Assembly (NCBI RefSeq): GCF_044704955.1
Contig: NC_091989.1
Span: 21,328,001 to 21,392,000, forward strand
Length of the DNA stretch: 64,000 nt
Reading direction: 5' to 3'
Origin: Pristiophorus japonicus
Taxonomy: Eukaryota
Shown piece after piece: positions 52,100 through 64,000 of this stretch. The notes below the pieces were generated by a model. It was not told the origin of the DNA. It searched no databases and was given only the letters and a program-made list of their open reading frames with translations. The translations under genes and the position numbers were made by a program. Numbering within the stretch: position 1 is the stretch's first letter; each line of letters starts with the position of its first letter.

Positions 52100-54911
52100 A
52101 CCTAATCATGCAGGTTGGGGTGAACCAGTGAGAGTTTGGTTTTAAGTGTCCTTTTCATGAGTAGCTCAGCCGGGGTCACCCCTGTGAGCGAGTGGGGTCT
52201 CGTGCGGTAGCTGAGCAGTACTCAGGACAGGCAGGTTTGGAGTGAGCCTTCTGTGACTCGTTTAAGGCTCTGTTTGATGGTTTGTACTGCCCGCTCTGCC
52301 TGCCCATTGGAGGTTGGTTTAAACGGGGCCGAGGTGACATGTTTGATCCCATTGCGGGTCATGAATTCTTTAAATTCGGCACTGGTGAAACATGACCCGT
52401 TGTCACTGACCAGTTGTCAGGCAGGCCGTGGGTGGCAAACATGGTCCTCAGATTTTCAATGGTGGCGGTGGCGGTGCTTCCCAACATTATTTCACATTCA
52501 ATCCATTTTGAAAAAGCATCCACCACCACCAGGAACATTTTACCAAGAAACAGGCCCGCATAGTCGACATGGATCCTCGACCATGGTCTGGAGGGCCAGG
52601 ACCACAAACATGGTGGTGCCTTTCTGGGCGCGTTGCTCAGCTGAGCACACACGCTGCATTGCCGTACAGAGGACTCTAAGTCAGAGTCGATACCGGGCCA
52701 CCACAGGTGGGATCTGGTTATCGCTTTCATCATTACTATACCCGGGTGTGTGCTGTGGAAATCCGAGATGAACGTCTCCCTGCCCTTTTTGGGTAGCACT
52801 ATGTGGTTACCCCACAATAGGCATTCTGCCTGAATGGACAGCTTGTCCTTTCGCTGCTGGAACGGTTTGATTGGCTCTTGCATTTCAACGGGGATGCTGG
52901 CCCAGCTCCCATGCAGTACATAGATTTTTGCTAGGGACAGCAAAGGATCTTGGCTGGTCCAAGTCCTAATCTGGCGGGCCGTGACAGGTGATTTATCATT
53001 TTCAAACGCTTCGATGACCATCAACAAGTCTGCGGGCTGCGCCACCATCAACAAGTTTGCAAGCTGCGCCATTTCCACCTCCGTGGTGGGCAATGGTAGC
53101 TGCCTGAGAGCATCCGCACAGTTCTCGGTGCCTGGCCTGTGGCGGATGGTATAGTTATACACTGATAGCGCAAGTGCCCACCTTTGTATGCGGGCTGAGG
53201 CATTAGTATTTATCCCCTTGTTTTCAGCGAACAGGGATATGAGGGGCTTGTGATCAGTTTCCAGTTCAAATTTGAGGCCAAACAGGTACTGATGCATTTT
53301 CTTTACCCTGAACACATACGCTAATGCCTCTTTCTCAATCATGCTGTAGGCCCTCTCGGCCTTAGACAGCTCCTGGAAGCATAGGCGACAGGTTGCAACT
53401 TCCCCGCAACATTAGCTTGTTGTAATACACACCTGACTCCGTACGACGACGTGTCACATGCTAGCACAAGTCTTTTACACGGGTTATACAATACAAGCAG
53501 CTTGTTGGAGCATAAATGTTTCTGGCTTCTCAAAAGCAATTCCTTGTTTTTTTCCCCATATCCAGTTCTCACCTTTGCGCATTAACACATGTAGGGGCTC
53601 TAAAAGGGTGCTTAACCCCGGTCGGAAGTTACCAAAATAGTTGAGGAGTCCCAGCAACGACCGCAGCTGCGTGATGTTCTGTGGCCTGGGTGCGTTCCTG
53701 ATAGCCTCTGTCTTGGCGCCTGTGGGCCGAATGCCGTCCGCTGCGATCTTTCTCCCCAAAAACTCCACTTCTGTTGCCATGAAGACGTATTTCGACCTCT
53801 TCAGCCGCAGCCCGACACGATCCAGTCGCTGGAGAACCTCCTCCAGGTTTTGTAGGTGCTCAACGGTGTCCCGACCCGTGATCAATATGTCGTCCCTGAA
53901 AGACCACCGTGTGTGGTACCGACTTGAGTAGGCTCTCCATGTTTCTCGAGAAGATCGCTGCAGCCGACCGAATCCCAAACGGGCATCTGTTGTAGATGAA
54001 CAGTCCCTTGTGCGTATTGATGCAGGTGAGGCCCTTCGAAGACTCCTCCAGCTCCTGTGTCATGTAGGCCAAAGTCAGGTCGAGCTTGGTGAACGTCTTG
54101 CCTCTTGCCAGCGTTGCAAATAGGTCGTCTGCCTTAGGTAGCGGGTATTGGTCCTGTAGCGAGAAACGATTAATAGTTACTTTATAATCGCCGCAAATCC
54201 TGACCGTGCCATCACTTTTGAGTACTGGAACAATCGGACTGGCCCACTCACTGAATTCCACTGGGGAGATGATGCCCTCGCGTTGCAGCTTGTCCAGCTC
54301 GATTTCCAGTCTCTCTCTCATCATGTGAGGTACCACTCGCGCCTTGTGGTGAAAGGGTCGTGCCTCTGGGACCAAGTGGATCCGCACCTTCGTCCCGGAA
54401 AAGTTTCCAATGCCTGGCTCAAAAAGGGAAGGAATTTGTTAAGAACCTAGGTACATGAGGCCTCATCGACATGTGATAGCGCTCGGATGTCATCCCAGTT
54501 CCAGCGGATTTTGCCCAGCCAGCTCCTTCCAAGCAGTGTGGGGCCATCGCCCGGGACAATCCAAAGTAGCAGTTCATGCATTGTGCCCTCGTAGGTGACC
54601 TTGACCATGGCGCTGCCCAGGACAGTGATGAGCTCTTTGGTGTATGTTCTCAGTTTCATGTGGATGGGGCTCAGGGCTGGTCTGAATGCCTTGGTGCACC
54701 ACAGTCTTTCTAACATCTTTTTACTCATGATGGATTGGCTAGCGCCAGTGTCCAGTTCCATGGCTACGGATAAGCCATTCAATTTGACGTTTAGCATTAT
54801 AGGTGGACATTTCGTCGAAAATGTGTGCACCCCGTGTACTTCAGCATCTGCCTCCTCTCTCTGAGGCTCTAACTTGCTTTGATACACCATGGACCGATCT
54901 TCCTCTGCCAC
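52100..54911 (-). pseudogene. Gypsy pol (protease, RT, RNase H, integrase), frameshifted
   Basis: ELDTGAS protease; WASPIVPV/RICGDYK RT; ETDHKPL RNase H; HPGI...CSVC zinc finger and RIHVDYAG integrase. Confidence 0.9.
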
Positions 54912-54956
54912 GTGGTGGTTAGCAGGTTTTGCAGAGCTTGCAGCTCGTCTGCAAGC

Positions 54957-55741
54957 TCATTGGAGGTGCTGCATTGTTCCACAGCTCTTGCAAACATACC
55001 CTTTGAAGCAGCATGAATAGGCTGAATGGAAGCCTCCACAATGCCCACAAGGTGTGAATTGCCTTGCATTCATCCTTTGTTGCGGACTCTGAGTCATCTG
55101 GGTCACCTGAGGCCTGCTGGCAGTTGCAAACTCGTGTTTTCTGCCCTGTACATTTCTGCTCGCAAACACAGTTCCAGTTAATTTATGAACATTGCTAGCA
55201 CTTGTGTGCTGAGAGATTTGTTTGATGTTATCACTGGTGGACATAAACGCCTGTGCTATCACAATGGCCTTACTGAGGGTCGGTGTCTCTACAGTCAAAA
55301 GTTTTTGTAGGATGGTCTCGTGGCCAATGCCCAGTACAAAAATGTCTCTGAGCATTTGCTCCAGGTAGCCATCAAACTCACATTGTCCTGCAAGTCGCCT
55401 AAGCTCGGCGACGTAGCTCGCCACTTCCTGACCTTCAGATCGCTGGCACGTGTAGAATCGATACCTCGCCATCAGCACGCTCTCCCTCGGGTTAAGATGC
55501 TCCCGAACCAGTGTGCACAGCTCCTCATACACCTTATCTGTGGGTTTCACTGGATCCAGAAGATTCTTCATGAGGCTGTAGGTCGGTGCCCCACAGACCG
55601 TGAGGAGGTCCGCTCTCCTTTTGCAGCGCTTCCTTCTCCGTCCAGCTCGTTGGCTACAAAGTACTGGTCTAGCCGTTCGACATAGGCTTCCCAGTCCTCA
55701 CCCTCCGAGAACTACTCCAGGATGCCCACAGTTTGCTGCAT
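54957..55741 (-). pseudogene. Gypsy gag (disrupted)
   Basis: ORF 54957-55571 (RYRFYTCQRSEGQEVASYVAELRRLA) with C-terminal Cys/His knuckles. Confidence 0.8.
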
Positions 55742-55965: not shown

Positions 55966-58232
55966 TTAACGTTTTAGACTTTGGAATCAAAAACACAATT
56001 TCTAAATTTGCGGACAACACCAAATTGGGGGGGATAGCCAATACTGTGGAGGACTGCAACAAATGACAAGAAGACATTAATAAACTTGCAGAATGGGCAT
56101 ATAATTGGCAAATGAAATTCAACACAGATAAATGTAAGGTATTACATTTTGGTAAGAAAAATAGGGAGGTCACATATTACTTGGAAAATAAGAATCTGAA
56201 TAGGGGTGGAGGAGCAAAGGGATCGCAGAGTACAAATACACAAATCACCAAAAGTGTCGACACAAATTAACAAGGCCATTAAAAAGCAAACCAAGCACTA
56301 GGGTTTATTTCTAGAGGGATAGAATTGAAAAGTAGAGTTATGCTAAACTTGTATCGAACCTTGGATAAACCACACTTGGAGTACTGTGTGCAATTCTGGT
56401 CACCATATTATAAAAAGGATATAGAGGCACTGGAGAGGGTGCAGAGAAGATTTACAAGGATGATACCAGCAATGCAAGGGTACACCTATCAGGAAAGGAT
56501 GAACAGACTGGGTCTCTTTTCTCTTGAAAAGAGAAGGCTGAGGGGTGACCTAATAGAGGTCTTTAAAATCATTAAAGGTTTTGATTTCATACGGAGTGTT
56601 TCCACTTATGGGGAAGAGCAAAATCAAAGGCCATCAATATAAGCGAGTCACCAAGAAATCAAATAGGGAATTCAGAAGAAACTTCTCTAACCAAAGAGTG
56701 GTGAGAATGTGCAACTCGCTACCACAGGAAGTGGTTGAAGTGAATAGTATGGATGCATTTAAGGGGAGGCTAGATAAGCATATGAGGAAGAAGGGGATAG
56801 AGGGTTATGCTGATAGATTTAGATGAGGAAAGATGAGAGGAGGCTCAAGTGGAGCATAAATGTCAGCATGGACTGGTTGGGCCGAATGGCCTGTTTCTGT
56901 GCTGTATATCCGATGTAATCCTATGTAAAATAAGAAACTGGCTGGGGGCAGGCAGGGAGGAGCCTGAATGGTTATGTTACAGAAACATGAGACCTATAAC
57001 TCAACCTAATAATATCCGGACACCACTGGGCCTGGAACTGGGAACGCCCTAATTACAGGGCTAGGGTTGTTTATTGAAATGTATACACCTCGCGAGTTAT
57101 TTTTCCACTGTTTCCTTGTTCCTTTTCTCTTGGTTTCCCTGTGGTCACTGCCATTCTGGTGAAAGGGGCGGCCGGTGACCTACTCCCTGCCAATAGCACT
57201 GAGCAGTTGACACCACATTTAAGTGCGGTGGATCACATTTGGTACAAAGGTAGCATAACGTCAGAGGAAGAGGTGGAGGAGGCCATTCAGCCCCTCGAGC
57301 CTATTCCGCCATTGAATTAAATCACAACTGATCTGTACCTCAACTCCATTGTCCCTTCTTTGTTCCCTTGATACCCTTACCCAACAAAAATCAACGATCT
57401 CAAGTTTTGAAAATAGCAATTAGCCTCCAGCATCCACAGCCTTTTGGGGGAGAGGGGGGAAAGAGTTCCAGATTTCCTCCTTCAACTTCTAACACACTAC
57501 CTTGTGTCATAGCAACCATTCTAAATAGAACAAACGGGGAAAAAAATGGAACCTGCATTTATATAGCACCTTGCACATCCTCAGGACATCCCAAACCACT
57601 TTGCAAATAATCAACTACTTCTTAAGTCTATTCACCTTGGCACCAATTAACTACTTTGAAGTCCAATCACTGTCATTATGTAGGGAGGTGCAGCAGCCAA
57701 TCAGAACATAACAGCAAAATTAGATAAATGACCACTTAACCTTTTTTGGTGGTGGTGGCTAAGGGAGGAATGTTGGCCAGGACACTTGAACTCCCTTGCT
57801 CTTTGACTAGTGCAGTGGGACCTTTTACATCCACCTGGTATTTGTTCCCTATAGTTGCCCGGGTGAGACACAGCTTCTCTCTCTCAGCTGTCTCGTTTAG
57901 TTGCCGGCTGGTTCACACTGCAGCGACAGGTTTGCAAATCCCGGGTATATGCCCCACCACTGATTTACCGATAAAATACAATAAATTTTCTGTTTTTTTT
58001 TAAACACACCACCCCCCTCTTTCTCCCAGGTTTCTGCCAAGCTGCTAAGGTATCAGATGGCACCCAGTGCCAATGGGACTGTACCCATCATGCCTTGAGG
58101 TGGGGATTGGCATGGGGTTGGGGGATTGAAATAAAATGTGCCATCAAGAATCAGCTCGGACTGAGAAATGCAGAGAATTCTTTGCTTCCGTACGTGAGGT
58201 ATTAAAACATTAGATAGTTAGTTCTCTGTCTA

Positions 58233-58246
58233 TTTATTTCTTTATT
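58233..58246 (-). terminator. SMKR1 polyadenylation signals (two AATAAA)
   Basis: tttatt on + at 58241-58246 and 58233-58238, immediately after the stop. Confidence 0.6.
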
Positions 58247-58254
58247 GAACCAAT

Positions 58255-58509
58255 TCACCTCCGTCTTTTCTTCTTGGCAATGCCAGGCCATTGGAAGCCC
58301 CGTAGGGCCAGAGTGTTGGCCACATTGTGAGAGATGTAGTACAGGTTGTACATGGCTGCTGGGCTCAGAATATCTACCTCCGGTTGGACTTTGGAAGCTT
58401 TGTCCTTCTTCTTTTTCTTCTTCTTGCCGCCCGCACGCTGTTTGCCGCCCTTGGCCTTCTTGCTGCCTGCGCTGCTGGCCTTCCCCGTCGGCTTACTGCC
58501 TTTGGTCGG
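58255..58509 (-). CDS. SMKR1: Small lysine-rich protein 1, main coding exon
   Basis: ttgcag|CCG acceptor; PTKGSK...[34 protein letters not shown] matches recalled human SMKR1 [34 protein letters not shown]; TGA at 58257-58255. Confidence 0.92.
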
Positions 58510-59066
58510 CTGCAACAAGAAGCAGACAAGCTCGGCTTTATTCCACCAAATGGTCACTCGCGGCAGAAAGCGTCTAAGGCCGAGCGTCAATGTTCCCTCT
58601 CATTTGTGTGTGGTCGCGCACGGTATCCTTTCCAGCAGCGACAACTGGTGAACGGCTGGCGCGGGACTTCCCGATCGATGCTCGAGTGCCCCCGCACCTT
58701 AGGGAGCCATTGGTGAGAATCCCCACACCCCCGTGCCCCCAACAGGAAACGGGTTTCTGATGGCACGCCACCAACTTCCTCAGCTGCTGCCCCACCCTGC
58801 CGAGCAGCCGCGGCACGGGCAGCGTGAGGTGCCACTGGAGCCCATGGATTTTACCCGCTGGGGAATCGGAAGGAAGAGATGGGCGAGGTGGTCGTCAATG
58901 AATCAGTATCACCCAACTCCCGCTGGTCAACCAAAGAGGTGGCGAGGCTGCGGAAATCCATCCAGCAGTCCATTCTCACCCCAGCAGAAGCACTGCACGT
59001 AGGGATGCAATGGAGAGGAAATTGATGGGCAAGGCTTAAAACAGAGAAGATAAATCAATACTGTAC

Positions 59067-59131
59067 CATTGCAAAATGATCTGGATCACGGGGTGAATAA
59101 CTTCCTAGTGCTGTTCAAAGGCATCCATCTC
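59067..59131 (-). other. SMKR1: Candidate SMKR1 5'UTR exon ending in the start ATG
   Basis: tttttctctag acceptor; ends ATG|gtacag, giving M|PTK in phase 0. Confidence 0.55.
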
Positions 59132-59395
59132 CTAGAGAAAAACACCAATTGGACAGTCACCATCGACACAGCCAATACCCTATAATTCCATCATTGACAT
59201 TATGACAGCCTGAATCCACCTCCATAACATCGCCGACCTTTGCCTCCGCTGCTGAAACCCTCCTGCGTGCCTATGCCACCTTCAGACTCTATTACTCCAG
59301 TGGTCTCCTGGATGGCATCCCAACTCCCACCCTCCATTAACTTCAGCTCATCCCAGTCTGCTGCCCAAACACCAAGTCACTTTTGCCCATGATGC

Positions 59396-59648
59396 TGAGA
59401 TGAGGAGGAATTTCTTCTCTCACAGGGCTGTAAATCTATGGAATTCTCTGCCCCAGAGAGCTGTGGAAGCTGGGTCATTGAATATATTTAAGGCGGAGAT
59501 TTTTGAGCGATAAGGGAATAAAGGGTTATGGGGAGCGGGCAGGGAAGTGGAGTCCATGATCAGATCAGCCATGATCTTATTAAATGGTGGAGCAGGCTCG
59601 AGGGGCCAGATGGCCTACTCCTGCTCCTATTTCTTATGTTCTTATGTT
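59396..59648 (+). mobile_element. CR1 LINE 3' end
   Basis: gagatgaggaggaatttc start; (TTCTTATG)n tail. Confidence 0.8.
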
Positions 59649-59976
59649 CCCCTTAAATGCATATATGCTCACCTCAATTACTCCTTGTGGTAGAGAGTTC
59701 CACATTCTAACCACTCTCTGGGTGAAGATGTTTCTCCTGAATTCCCTATTGGATGTATCTTGTATTTATGGCCCCCAGTTCTGGTCTCGCCCACAAGTGT
59801 AAATATCTTCTCTACATCCTCAGAAATGTTAATGCTACCTTTCATTGACCTGTGTGTATTGCCACCATCTGTACTGTGTGTGTTTTTTTACATTTTACAG
59901 TCTGCGTCACTTGGTTGTGTTTGTCCGAGGGAGGAATTGCCTGGATGTAAAGCACTTACCGGATGTGTCCGTGGCC

Positions 59977-60677
59977 CTGGAATAATAACAGAAAATGCTG
60001 GAAATCTCAGCGGGTCAGGAGAGGAAACAGAGTTAACATTTCGGGTAGATGACCCTTCGTCAGAACTGGAGAGTGTTCAAAAAGATCAGATTCTTAACAA
60101 GGGGGGGGGGGAGAAAGAACAAAAGGGAAGGTCGGTGATAGGTTGGAAGACAGGAGAGATTAGAGAGACAAAAGGGATGATGGCCCAAATTCAAATGGTA
60201 ATGCTAGGAGTTAGAAAAACATTAGTCAAGCTAGGGTGTGAATGGTGGGATAATGACCAACTGCCATTCGAGACAAGGAGAGAAAAAAAGAAACAGGCTC
60301 TGAGCAGGGACGGGGCAGGGGAAAGGAGCCAAAGATTGGCGGGGTTATGCTCTGAAATTGTTGAACTCAATGTTGAGTCCAGAAGGCTGTAAAGTGCCTA
60401 AACGAAAAATGAGGTGCTGTTCCTCGAGCTTACGTTGAGCTTCATTGGAACAGTGCAGGAGACCGAGGGAGAGGTCAGAGTGGGAATGGAGCGGAGAATT
60501 AAAGTGACAGGCGATCGGAAGCTCAGGGTCACACTTGCGGACTGAACGGAGGTACTCCGCAAAGCAGTCACCCGATCTACGCTTGGTCTCCCCAATGTAG
60601 AGGAGATCGCATCCTGAGCAGCGAATACAGTACACTGAATTGAAAGAAGTACAAGTAAATCGCTGTTTCACCTGGAA
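59977..60677 (-). mobile_element. 5'-truncated Penelope-like element (GIY-YIG C-terminus plus 3' terminal region)
   Basis: VYCIRCSGCDLLYIGETKRR...HF...LGTLQPSGLN in ORF 60345-61049; flanked by a CCTGGAA direct repeat. Confidence 0.88.
60028..60069 (-). ncRNA. Minimal type I hammerhead ribozyme motif of the Penelope element
   Basis: agtt-CTGACGA-agggtcatctaccc-GAAA-tgtt-aact: conserved core, stem II gggt/accc, stem I agtt/aact. Confidence 0.6.
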
Positions 60678-60783
60678 ATGCTGCAGAGTCCGTTTCGGAT
60701 CTGCCTCCGACAGAACCAGGTCTGATTCTGAAATCCAACCTGCGGCAGAGGCGGCGCGGGTCACAGGAGAGTTGAAGAGATCG

Positions 60784-60920
60784 ACACACACACACCGGGG
60801 CAGGACACACACACACACACACACACCGGGGCAGGACACACACACACACACCGGGGCAGGACACACACACACACACACACACCGGGGCAGGACACACACA
60901 CACACACACCGGGGCAGGAC
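60784..60920. repeat. Compound (AC)n-CGGGGCAGG repeat, 5 copies
   Basis: Seen directly. Confidence 0.9.
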
Positions 60921-61053
60921 CGACTGGGGAAGGTTTCCCTCAAAGTTGCAACAACTTTGCTCGCTCTCAGAGACTTTTCCTGTTTGTTCCCGAGGCCGGG
61001 ATGTTGTTGTGAGCTCTCTCTCCCTCTCGCTGAAGGATTTACCGGTCACTCAC

Positions 61054-61170
61054 CTGCCTACGTTGCCTGGAATCTGTCACATGCCGAGTGAGAGCCGGAC
61101 TCTACCTCCCCGCTCAGTCACTGACTGTTTACAACGCGTCTCCTTAGAAACACTCCTCCCCGTCCAATGA
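61054..61170 (-). promoter_or_regulatory. Candidate SMKR1 exon 1 / promoter with X-box, forkhead and CCAAT motifs
   Basis: cag|gtgagt donor at 61053; GTTGCCTGGAATC 61062-61074; TGTTTACA 61126-61133; GTCTCCTTAGAAAC 61138-61151; CCAAT 61164-61168. Confidence 0.5.
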
Positions 61171-61775
61171 TCTCCTCCCACCCTGGCCCCCGCGGTTAGG
61201 AGGAAGTTAAGAGCAGGGAGGTCTCCAGGGAAACCTTCTGCCCTCTGCTCATTTCACTGACTGGGATCTTGCTCTGCACAACATATCCACTGCACCAGCC
61301 TGCACGTTACTGCAATCTACCGCATGTGAAGCATTTTGGGAGGCGCTCTACAAATGCAAATGTTATGAGTCGATTCCACAAATAATGCGATTCCTTGCGT
61401 TGTTCTCAATGGTCGAACAGTTGATGAACTCACCATTTAAGCTCACACACGAAAAATAAGAGATAGAGGGTGTAACCTCAGTGAGGGGCAAAGCCTTTAG
61501 AGTGCGTGTATGTGAGGGAAAACAATCTGGATGTAGCACAACCAGAGCTTGCACTATCCTTCAGCGATTACTCAATGAGGGAGTATTCTACTTATGAGGC
61601 TCGGTGTCAAATTCTTATTGCATAATACTTATTGAAGTGCCATGGGACGTGTCACTACGTTAAAGGTGCTATATAAATACAAAGTGTTATTCTGCAGTGA
61701 TCTCTCAATGAGGGAGTATTCTACACTGATTACGCAAAGAATCCACTGCAGGGATTACTCTATGAAGGAGTATTA

Positions 61776-63547
61776 CATAGAAACATAGAAAATAGGTGCA
61801 GGAGTAGGCCATTCGGCCCTTCAAGTCTGCACCACCATTCAATAAGATCATGGCTGATCATGCAACCTCAGTACCCCTTTCCTGCTTTCTTTCCATACCC
61901 CATGATCCCCTTAGCCGCAAGGGCCATATCTAACTCCCTCTTGAATATATCCAATGAACTGGCATCAACAACTCTCTGCAGTAGGGAATTCCACAGGTTA
62001 ACAACTCTCTGAATGAAGAAGTTTTTCCTCATCTCGGTCCTAAATGACTTACTCCTTATCCTTAGACTGTGACCCCTGGTTCTGGACGTCCCCAACATCT
62101 GGAACATTCTTCCTGCATCTAATCTGTCCAATCCCATCAGAATGTTATATGTTTCTATGAGATCCCAACTCATTCTTCTAAATTCCAGTGAATATAAGCC
62201 TAGTCGAGCCAGTCTTTCTTCATATGTCATTCCTGCCATCCCGGGAATCAGTCTGGTGAACCTTCACTGCACTCCCTCAATAGCAAGAATATCCTTCCTC
62301 AGATTAGGAGACCAAAATTGCGCACAATACTCAAGGTGTGGTCTCACCAAGACTCTGTACAACTGCAGTAAGATCTCCCTGCTCCTGTACTCAAATCATC
62401 TTGCTATGAAGGCCAGCATGCCATTTGCTTTCTTTACTGCCTGCTGTACCTGCATGCCTACCTTCAATGACTGATGTACCATGACACCCAGGTCTCGTTG
62501 CACTGCCCCTTTTACTAATCTGTCACCATTCAGATAATAATCTGCCTTCCTGTTTTTGCCACCAAAGTGGATAATCTCACACTTATCCACATTATACTGC
62601 ATCTACCGTGCATTTGCCCATTCACCTAACCTGTCCAAGTCCCTCTGCAGCCTCTTAGCATCCTCCTCACAGCTCGCACTGCAATCTAGCTTAGTGTCAT
62701 CTGCAAACTTGGAGCTATTACATTCAATTCCTTCGTCTAAATCATTAATGTATATTGTAAATAGCTGGGGTCCCAGCACTGAACCCTGCGCACCCCACTA
62801 GTCACGGCCTGCCATTCTGAAAAGGACCCGTTTATTCCCACTCTTTGCTTCCTGTCTGCCAACCAGTTCTCTATCCACATCAATACATTACCCCCAATAC
62901 CATGTACCTTAATTTTGCACACTCATCTCTTGTGTGGGACCTTGTCAAAAGCCTTTTGAAAGTCCAAGTACACCACACCCACTGGTTCTCCCTCATCCAC
63001 TCTACTAGTTACATCCTCAAAAAACTCTAGAAGATTTGTCAAGCATGATTTCCCTTTCATAAATCCATGCTGACTTGGACCGATCCTGTCACAGCTTTCC
63101 AAATGCGCTGCTATTACATCTTTAATAATTGACTCCAGCATTTTCCCCACCACCGATGTCAGGCTAACCAGTCTATAATTCCATGTTTTCTCTCTCCCTC
63201 CTTTTTTAAAAAGTGGGATTACATTAGCTACCCTCCAATCCATAGGAACTGAACCAGAGTCCATGGAATGTTGGACAATAACCACCAATGCATCTACTAT
63301 TTCTAGGGTCACTTCCTTAAGGACTCTGGGATGCAGACAATCAGGCCCTGGGGATTTATCGGCCTTTAGTCCCTTCAATTTCCCTAACACCATTGCCTGA
63401 CTAATAAGGATTTCCCTCAGTTCCCCCTTCTCGCGAGACACTCGGTCCCCTAGTATTTTTGGAAGGTTATTCGTGTCTTCCTTAGCGAAGACAGAACCAA
63501 AGTATTTGTTCAATTGGTCTGCCATTTCCTTGTCCCCCATTATAAAT
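61776..63547 (-). mobile_element. CR1 LINE ORF2 relic (~1.8 kb)
   Basis: KSPGPD, NYRLVSLTS, YLDFQKAFDKVPH; (CATAGAAA)n tail; frameshifted. Confidence 0.92.
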
Positions 63548-63669
63548 TCTGCAATGATTATTCAATAAGGAGTACTCTGCAGTGATGATTCTTCTTCTTA
63601 GGCAGTCTCTTGGAGTTGAAGATGACTTGCTTCCACACTAAAATGGGTTCTAAGGTGACTGATGAGACC

Positions 63670-64000
63670 AATTATTTTGCTTCGGTCTTCACAGTGGAAG
63701 ACACAAAAACCATGCCAAAAATTGCTGGTCACAGGAATGTGGGAAGGGAGGACCTTGAGACAATCACTATCACTAGGGGGGTAGACAAGTCCCCTGGTCC
63801 TGATGAAATGCATCCCAGGGTATTAAAAGAGATGGCGGAAGTTATAGCAGATGCATTTGTTATAATCTACCAAAATTCTCTGGACTCTGGGGAGGTACCA
63901 GCGGATTGGAAAGCAGCTAATGTAACGCCTCTGTTTAAAAAAGGGGGCAGACAAAAGGCAGGTAACTAGAGGCCGGTTAGTTTAACATCTGTAGTGGGGA
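63670..64000 (+). mobile_element. CR1 LINE fragment running off the window end
   Basis: NYFASVFTVED...KSPGPDEMHPRVLKE. Confidence 0.85.

Follow-up and report, generated by a model that had tools for sequence, protein, structure and literature searches.

Candidate accidental intron gain from a 5'-truncated Penelope-like retroelement upstream of SMKR1 in the shark Pristiophorus japonicus

Has a Penelope-like retroelement fragment that landed upstream of the SMKR1 start codon become an intron? Transposons are described as creating introns by two routes, duplication of a host AGGT or insertion of an element carrying splice sites of its own (PMC3443670), and recent intron gains with a traceable source are rare in vertebrates (PMC12130899; PMC2746811). 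Here, we report an analysis of a 64,000-nucleotide stretch of Pristiophorus japonicus DNA (the window), for which a previous sequence-only reading had proposed that a Penelope insertion, exactly removable by splicing, split an 85-nt SMKR1 5'UTR exon.

Insertion locus and gene

The coordinates proposed in that reading (acceptor 60740, 68 nt, 695 nt, 17 nt, donor 59959) were all correct on the minus strand. Read in this direction, a host AG acceptor ends at 60740 and is followed by 68 nt (60739 to 60672), by 695 nt (60671 to 59977) with GT at the start and a T-rich tract plus CCAG at the end, and by 17 nt (59976 to 59960) leading into GTAAGT at 59959. The heptamer TTCCAGG stands at both junctions (60677 to 60671 and 59982 to 59976). 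By sequence inspection, removal of the 695 nt leaves one copy of the 7-mer and joins the flanks, as had been claimed; the insert is bounded by GT...AG and its removal rejoins the host sequence. The features of the locus are as follows.

59977..60671, minus strand: Penelope-like insert, 5'-truncated, 695 nt, sense to SMKR1; putative new intron with both ends element-encoded
60671..60677, minus strand: left TTCCAGG, all 7/7 bases as in the interior of the element; probable host duplication combined with 5' microhomology
59976..59982, minus strand: right TTCCAGG, bases 1 to 6 equal to the element tail motif, final G non-element
60345..60677, minus strand: GIY-YIG endonuclease remnant, the C-terminal part of the element open reading frame plus stop, in a frame common to the longer copy L116
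60035..60063, minus strand: minimal hammerhead-like core CTGACGA...GAAA, by motif pattern; no Rfam match
60672..60739, minus strand: candidate half-exon A, upstream, 68 nt, single copy; acceptor 60740 moderate (97.2nd percentile)
59960..59976, minus strand: candidate half-exon B, downstream, 17 nt, flank single copy
59954..59959, minus strand: strong host donor GTAAGT (99.9th percentile)
61048..61053, minus strand: host donor GTGAGT, strong, following 61054, where a first exon may end
60784..60920, no strand assigned: compound microsatellite array with five cryptic CCG/GTGTGT donors on the minus strand
59067..59131, minus strand: SMKR1 exon whose last three bases are the start ATG; 99.0th-percentile acceptor, 59127 to 59067 within a spliced contig
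58241..58509, minus strand: SMKR1 coding exon, codons 2 to 85; stop at 58257 to 58255, AATAAA at 58246 to 58241

The exon at 58509 to 58255, preceded by the ATG that closes the exon at 59131 to 59067, gives an 85-aa protein (P0001 in the protein collection). Its closest proteins found were the SMKR1 of three sharks (61 to 71% identity), and its Atlas scores for SMKR1 were 0.92/0.91, which bears out the earlier assignment of the gene. The coding sequence is single copy in genome G000, where a search for a retrocopy or paralogue preserving the spliced UTR returned only the locus itself. The coding junction expected by the sequence-only reading, 59067>58509, is present in contig 17 of run X6, in which 59127 to 59067 is joined to 58509 to 58263 (61 letters on one side, 247 on the other); this contig begins at 59127, and its other end stops before the poly(A) signal. 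No RNA set was listed as containing the coding exon. Runs X5 to X7 belong to one study of a kind not on record and were taken as RNA-like (exon-only cover, one spliced contig), X6 in particular because its cover is restricted to exons. A single SMKR1 protein sequence carries two accessions in Mustelus, and a single one carries three in Heptranchias, which suggests UTR isoforms of the gene in sharks; no N-terminally extended isoform was found among three homologues of 46 to 147 aa. By title, SMKR1 gene structure was the subject of no SMKR1 paper among the matches listed.

The start ATG closes its exon, placing a phase-0 intron directly after the start codon, and the same exon holds a short out-of-frame upstream ATG frame. 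Old repeat sequence lies just upstream of it (59350 to 59190). The last SMKR1 intron is CpG-rich at 58401 to 59000 (GC of about 0.6; observed/expected [o/e] ratio, 0.7 to 0.9), with extra contig depth in three runs at 58550 to 58639; this stretch may represent either a promoter or an old repeat. Just upstream of the candidate exon, the array at 60784 to 60920 consists of a GC-rich unit plus (GT)n in about four copies of 31 nt, with a cryptic donor in every unit. Decayed minus-strand frames resembling LTR retroelements (gag/pol) and LINEs were seen by eye in translations at 52359 to 55697 and 61790 to 64000, and the next 30 kb upstream contained repeat-type frames only, without neighbor genes (by eye).

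Element family and origin of the splice signals

The family was searched for in the 5.9-Gb genome G000 (8,092 candidates, 40 scored), and the insert proved to be the 3' end of a Penelope-like retroelement present in high copy number. The Penelope identity put forward earlier was upheld by a C-terminal GIY-YIG domain (Atlas scores of 0.96/0.95 to GIY-YIG clusters) and by the longer copy L116, whose 497-aa frame has a YIDD motif, which we take to be that of a reverse transcriptase, ahead of the same domain. Pfam returned PF01541 for L116 at an E value of 5e-4, under the curated cut-off, and no reverse transcriptase family for this copy; it returned no family for the 234-aa frame of the window, and a PDB sequence search with the GIY-YIG remnant gave one match only (E value, 1.1). 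The window copy is without the reverse transcriptase region owing to truncation. The 5' ends of family copies lie 14 to 1,531 nt above the anchor, and duplications are short and variable. Compared with the majority sequence of the 29 sister copies that match it best, the insert is 5.0% diverged (sister median, 5.1%).

The hammerhead-like core at 60063 to 60035 carries C>T at 60038 relative to the family majority, and its motif occurs in 33/69 copies by a simple pattern. Rfam gave five chance-level matches and no hammerhead, and the fold of the segment had a z score of 0.23; the motif may be a ribozyme, given its agreement with the hammerhead consensus and with the description in PMC6155905. 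Minimal hammerheads have been reported for endonuclease-bearing Penelope-like elements (PMC6155905). In L039 (identical to L058), L044 and L069, an inverted element segment lies head-to-head at the 5' junction. Such head-to-head arrangements are known for Penelope elements.

The splice signals of the insert come from the element. It extends upstream of TTCCAGG in 25/29 sister copies and beyond the tail TTCCAG in about 19/29 (both by eye), and the donor 9-mer is present in 61/69 copies, 40 of which were chosen by a pattern containing it (21/29 among the unselected). Donor GT, pyrimidine tract and AG all belong to internal family sequence of the element, which the truncation points of this copy happen to expose. 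The mechanism that the sequence-only reading had pointed to, a duplicated host AG/G target supplying the splice sites, is not supported, given this origin and the recurrence of the same ends at L034, a site free of exon signals. Because the splice signals belong to the element, the classical host-AGGT duplication route does not apply; the base after the right AG/G is G, not T.

The repeat itself is likewise almost wholly element sequence. Of the 14 bases in the two TTCCAGG copies, 13 match element-internal sequence (7/7 on the left, 6/7 on the right), G 59976 being its sole non-element letter, and TTCCAGG has just two occurrences in a 1,955-nt reference copy. The 7-mer repeat is therefore not independent proof of a host duplication, and with one non-element base it leaves the empty site unproven. 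Duplications were surveyed in 40 successive copies on a single contig, with BLAST boundaries that may be off by a few bases. Direct repeats of at least 9 nt joined the ends in 7/40 copies (0.36 expected from mispaired flanks) and those of at least 7 nt in 14/40 (2.46 expected), leaving 26/40 without a repeat of 7 nt or more. Six of the seven long repeats (at least 9 nt) begin within the aligned tail, and three overlap the element at both ends. Since the family makes duplications that overlap its ends, a 7-bp duplication is still likely, and the window copy is probably flanked by a true one. The earlier claim of a TTCCAGG duplication thus stands as plausible, given the family excess of long repeats, but the repeat offers one informative base only. 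Microhomology at Penelope 5' junctions, with or without duplication, has been described (PMC3846280).

Copies sharing these ends are few. Letters that depart from the consensus precede TTCCAGG in 26 hits. Of these, 17 were true truncations at that point, and 10 of the 17 reach the tail. Two of the 17 end at TTCCAG/G, the window copy and L034 (identical to L049; G000:C7:71946892), amounting to 2 of about 1,630 exact-match copies with the geometry at both ends. L034 is an independent copy that TTCCAGG bounds on both sides and that has no exon signals nearby (no donor scoring >2 within the next 300 nt), a natural control; because it shares the ends yet lacks donor signals, splice-ready ends can arise without an exon. 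Among 15 copies ending at the tail TTCCAG/G (two of which run on in the tail and two of which are duplicates of each other), a 7- to 8-nt repeat was present only in L132 and L135, and none started at the internal TTCCAGG. The family does not show the many splice-ready copies expected of introners (2/17 from the start point, 0/15 from the tail end, no enrichment of starts). The geometry is a rare by-product of what we infer to be microhomology-guided insertion in an ordinary family, not an introner family.

A hotspot at the 5' start point was considered and rejected: after removal of non-truncation rows (1/8 at the start point, 7/12 at the control), 7/1,631 copies start there, against 5/1,466 at a control position lying 12 nt from it. 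Seven of the 12 control hits (L070, L072 to L075, L077 and L078) have the same 9-bp in-frame deletion between CAG triplets at the internal donor, which is either recurrent slippage or a subfamily mark. One copy, L067 (G000:C12:41489947), is the reciprocal case to the window insert: about 710 nt are cleanly missing between its internal TTCCAG and that of the tail. Because the base before the motif is that of the tail, a template jump between the two TTCCAG motifs fits this junction better than splicing does. Genome-wide, an L067-type junction gave no exact hit and one hit at one mismatch, and spliced Penelope retrocopies were rejected on the same counts (0 exact, 1 at one mismatch).

Flanks and predicted splicing of the insert

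Splice sites were scored with our own approximate weight matrix of splice-site base frequencies and are expressed as percentiles within the window. Donor 59959 ranks at the 99.9th percentile of 7,337 GT sites in the window, a strength equaled once per 5.5 to 13 kb, and donor 61053 at the 100th; acceptors 60740 and 59132 rank at the 97.2nd and 99.0th. The element donor and acceptor rank at the 98.4th and 99.8th. Donor and acceptor signals alternate at 61053, 60740, 59959 and 59132, both flanks of the insert are single copy, and a donor scoring at least 5 near the 3' end was found in 1/40 control copies. The exon-like host splice signals noted earlier (donor 59959, acceptor 60740) were thus reproduced, within the approximation of the matrix. 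A sense donor of this strength only 17 nt away from the junction, and 0.8 kb upstream of an ATG exon whose acceptor is good, makes a real exon at the flanks likely, even after a discount for selection in a large scan. Such an exon may have been internal, with 85 nt, or the terminal part of a first exon. CpG-rich bins such as 60501 to 61000 are common in the window (14/128), so a promoter reading of that bin is weak. A search for an RFX X-box gave a single loose match near 60950.

Within the insert, a branch-point-like CTGAC lies at -39 of the element acceptor, and nearer AGs score below 0. The element donor is unchanged and is without a +5 G, the pyrimidine tract has one T>A, and cryptic acceptors occur at 60397, 60299 and 60203. 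With divergence at 5.0% against the 5.1% median, the splice signals show no sign of improvement or conservation. Retention of the insert would add five upstream ATGs, and a cost from these and the possible ribozyme is possible. Under vertebrate exon definition, an exon of 17 nt that follows a 695-nt intron makes a poor splicing substrate. Junctions 60672>59976 and 59960>59131 were absent among 15 of the 172 rows of the joint table for 58100 to 60780, all 15 repeat-derived. Depth was 0 over 60710 to 60780 in X5 to X7 and likewise in DNA run X1; over 60925 to 61580, there were 0 contigs from X5, X6 and X7, and X1 spans the stretch. These blanks were counted neither for nor against splicing of the insert.

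Candidate mechanism and rival readings

Our leading reading, with a probability of roughly 0.4, is accidental intron gain: a Penelope-like copy would have split a likely SMKR1 5'UTR exon and is predicted, from its signals, to be removable as an intron in at least part of the transcripts. The element bears TTCCAGG/T internally and TTCCAG in its tail. Priming of reverse transcription by a nicked target may have taken place at the TTCCAG of the tail, and joining of the second strand at the internal TTCCAGG, which would make the whole 7-bp duplication also microhomology at both ends. The resulting geometry is that of a GT...AG segment, and taking it out leaves a single 7-mer. The flanks would formerly have been one exon, and use of the element-borne sites by the spliceosome would putatively make the insertion tolerable. 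This reading is favored because the ends match element signals, the family makes duplications, the flanks are single copy, the splice signals alternate and the acceptor is strong; the same ends at L034, the five ATGs of a retained insert, the hint of UTR isoforms in sharks and the spliced X6 contig point the same way. It is weakened by the single informative base, the 26/40 copies without a repeat, the missing exon at L034 and the absence of adaptation, and further by the 17-nt exon, the donor without +5 G, the cryptic acceptors and the approximate matrix.

If the exon was real, it may still be minor, skipped or dead, or its promoter may be, with the 695 nt not an intron of its own and SMKR1 mRNA either starting near the ATG exon or jumping both halves. 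The weak element donor, the 17-nt second half and the neutral-looking divergence would suit such a fate, as would the CpG-rich 58401 to 59000 (o/e, 0.7 to 0.9), which follows the ATG exon and would fit a promoter. The ATG exon, however, looks internal, with an acceptor at the 99.0th percentile and the old repeat at 59350 to 59190 upstream, and donor 59959 has stayed intact through about 5% of element divergence; we consider this outcome unlikely, though deserving of serious weight. That the flanks were never an exon, with an ordinary intronic or upstream Penelope fragment and a GTAAGT thrown up by a large scan, is suggested by the same ends at the non-exonic L034, by a start point that is no hotspot (7/1,631 versus 5/1,466) and by 8,092 candidates, which are many trials. 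Yet a donor so strong occurs once per 5.5 to 13 kb and here lies in sense 17 nt from the junction, with the ATG exon 0.8 kb downstream and another top-scoring donor at 61053, and coincidence appears improbable.

The strongest pair of sites, acceptor 59977 (99.8th percentile) and donor 59959 (99.9th), would also allow exonization, in which the tail or a cryptic element acceptor and donor 59959 define an exon of 17 nt or more that is spliced to 61054. The two weakest sites (97.2nd and 98.4th) are those of half-exon A, which also has five cryptic donors upstream. Microexons, however, usually need dedicated enhancers, and we hold this course to be very improbable. L067 lacks almost exactly the 695-nt segment and two loci hold exactly it, as would follow if the segment were the Penelope transcript's own intron, relocated through reverse splicing or in excised form. 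The L067 junction is nevertheless better read as a template jump, the start point is not enriched and reverse splicing is described as extremely rare (PMC3443670), so the chance of such a transfer is close to negligible.

Accidental intron gain at SMKR1 would, if confirmed, represent a new route, in which internal motifs of a retroelement and microhomology-guided truncation yield a precise intron without dedicated introner design. Copies with the same two ends are then predicted to form a class that can be searched for in shark genomes. At present, it is a single unproven UTR case. The wider proposition, that Penelope integration chemistry yields precise vertebrate introns, with a hexamer common to an internal CAG/GT and the pyrimidine-rich tail steering both junctions through microhomology, the SMKR1 case cleanly removed together with its hammerhead and upstream ATGs, and more cases in shark genes, is put forward tentatively and with odds short of even.

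Comparison with known systems

No report of Penelope-derived intron gain was found by title or abstract opening; most subscription journals, as well as introner datasets and supplements, lay outside the search and may bear on novelty. The word "Penelope" is absent from the main text of PMC12130899 (text only, datasets apart), and the text available of PMC12124190, which surveys human coding introns, does not cover the element-motif route.

As an insertion, the element resembles EN+ Penelope-like elements as described in PMC3846280 and PMC6155905: a putative reverse transcriptase followed by a C-terminal GIY-YIG domain, 5' truncation, short variable duplications, likely microhomology at the 5' junction and a candidate minimal hammerhead motif. 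The element itself is no different from these; what sets the locus apart is only a chance pair of TTCCAG motifs 695 nt apart, flanking GT...AG. With introners (PMC9860276; PMC12130899), of which non-LTR retrotransposons make up about 5% of those categorized (PMC12130899), it shares a transposable-element origin, splice sites of its own and a short duplication. Introner-derived introns, in contrast, are family-wide, whereas both ends occur here in 2/17 starts, or about 2/1,630 exact-match copies. The closest likeness is to transposon-mediated intron gain (PMC3443670), with its GT...AG-bounded insert, short direct repeat and single target copy left after removal. In the textbook AGGT route, the host supplies the GT, whereas the target here would be AG/GG, with the GT and the acceptor tract coming from the element, as internal motifs exposed solely by truncation of the window copy. 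On its sequence, the SMKR1 locus is thus best read as a putative case that works like transposon-mediated intron gain, of neither the AGGT-duplication type nor the introner type.
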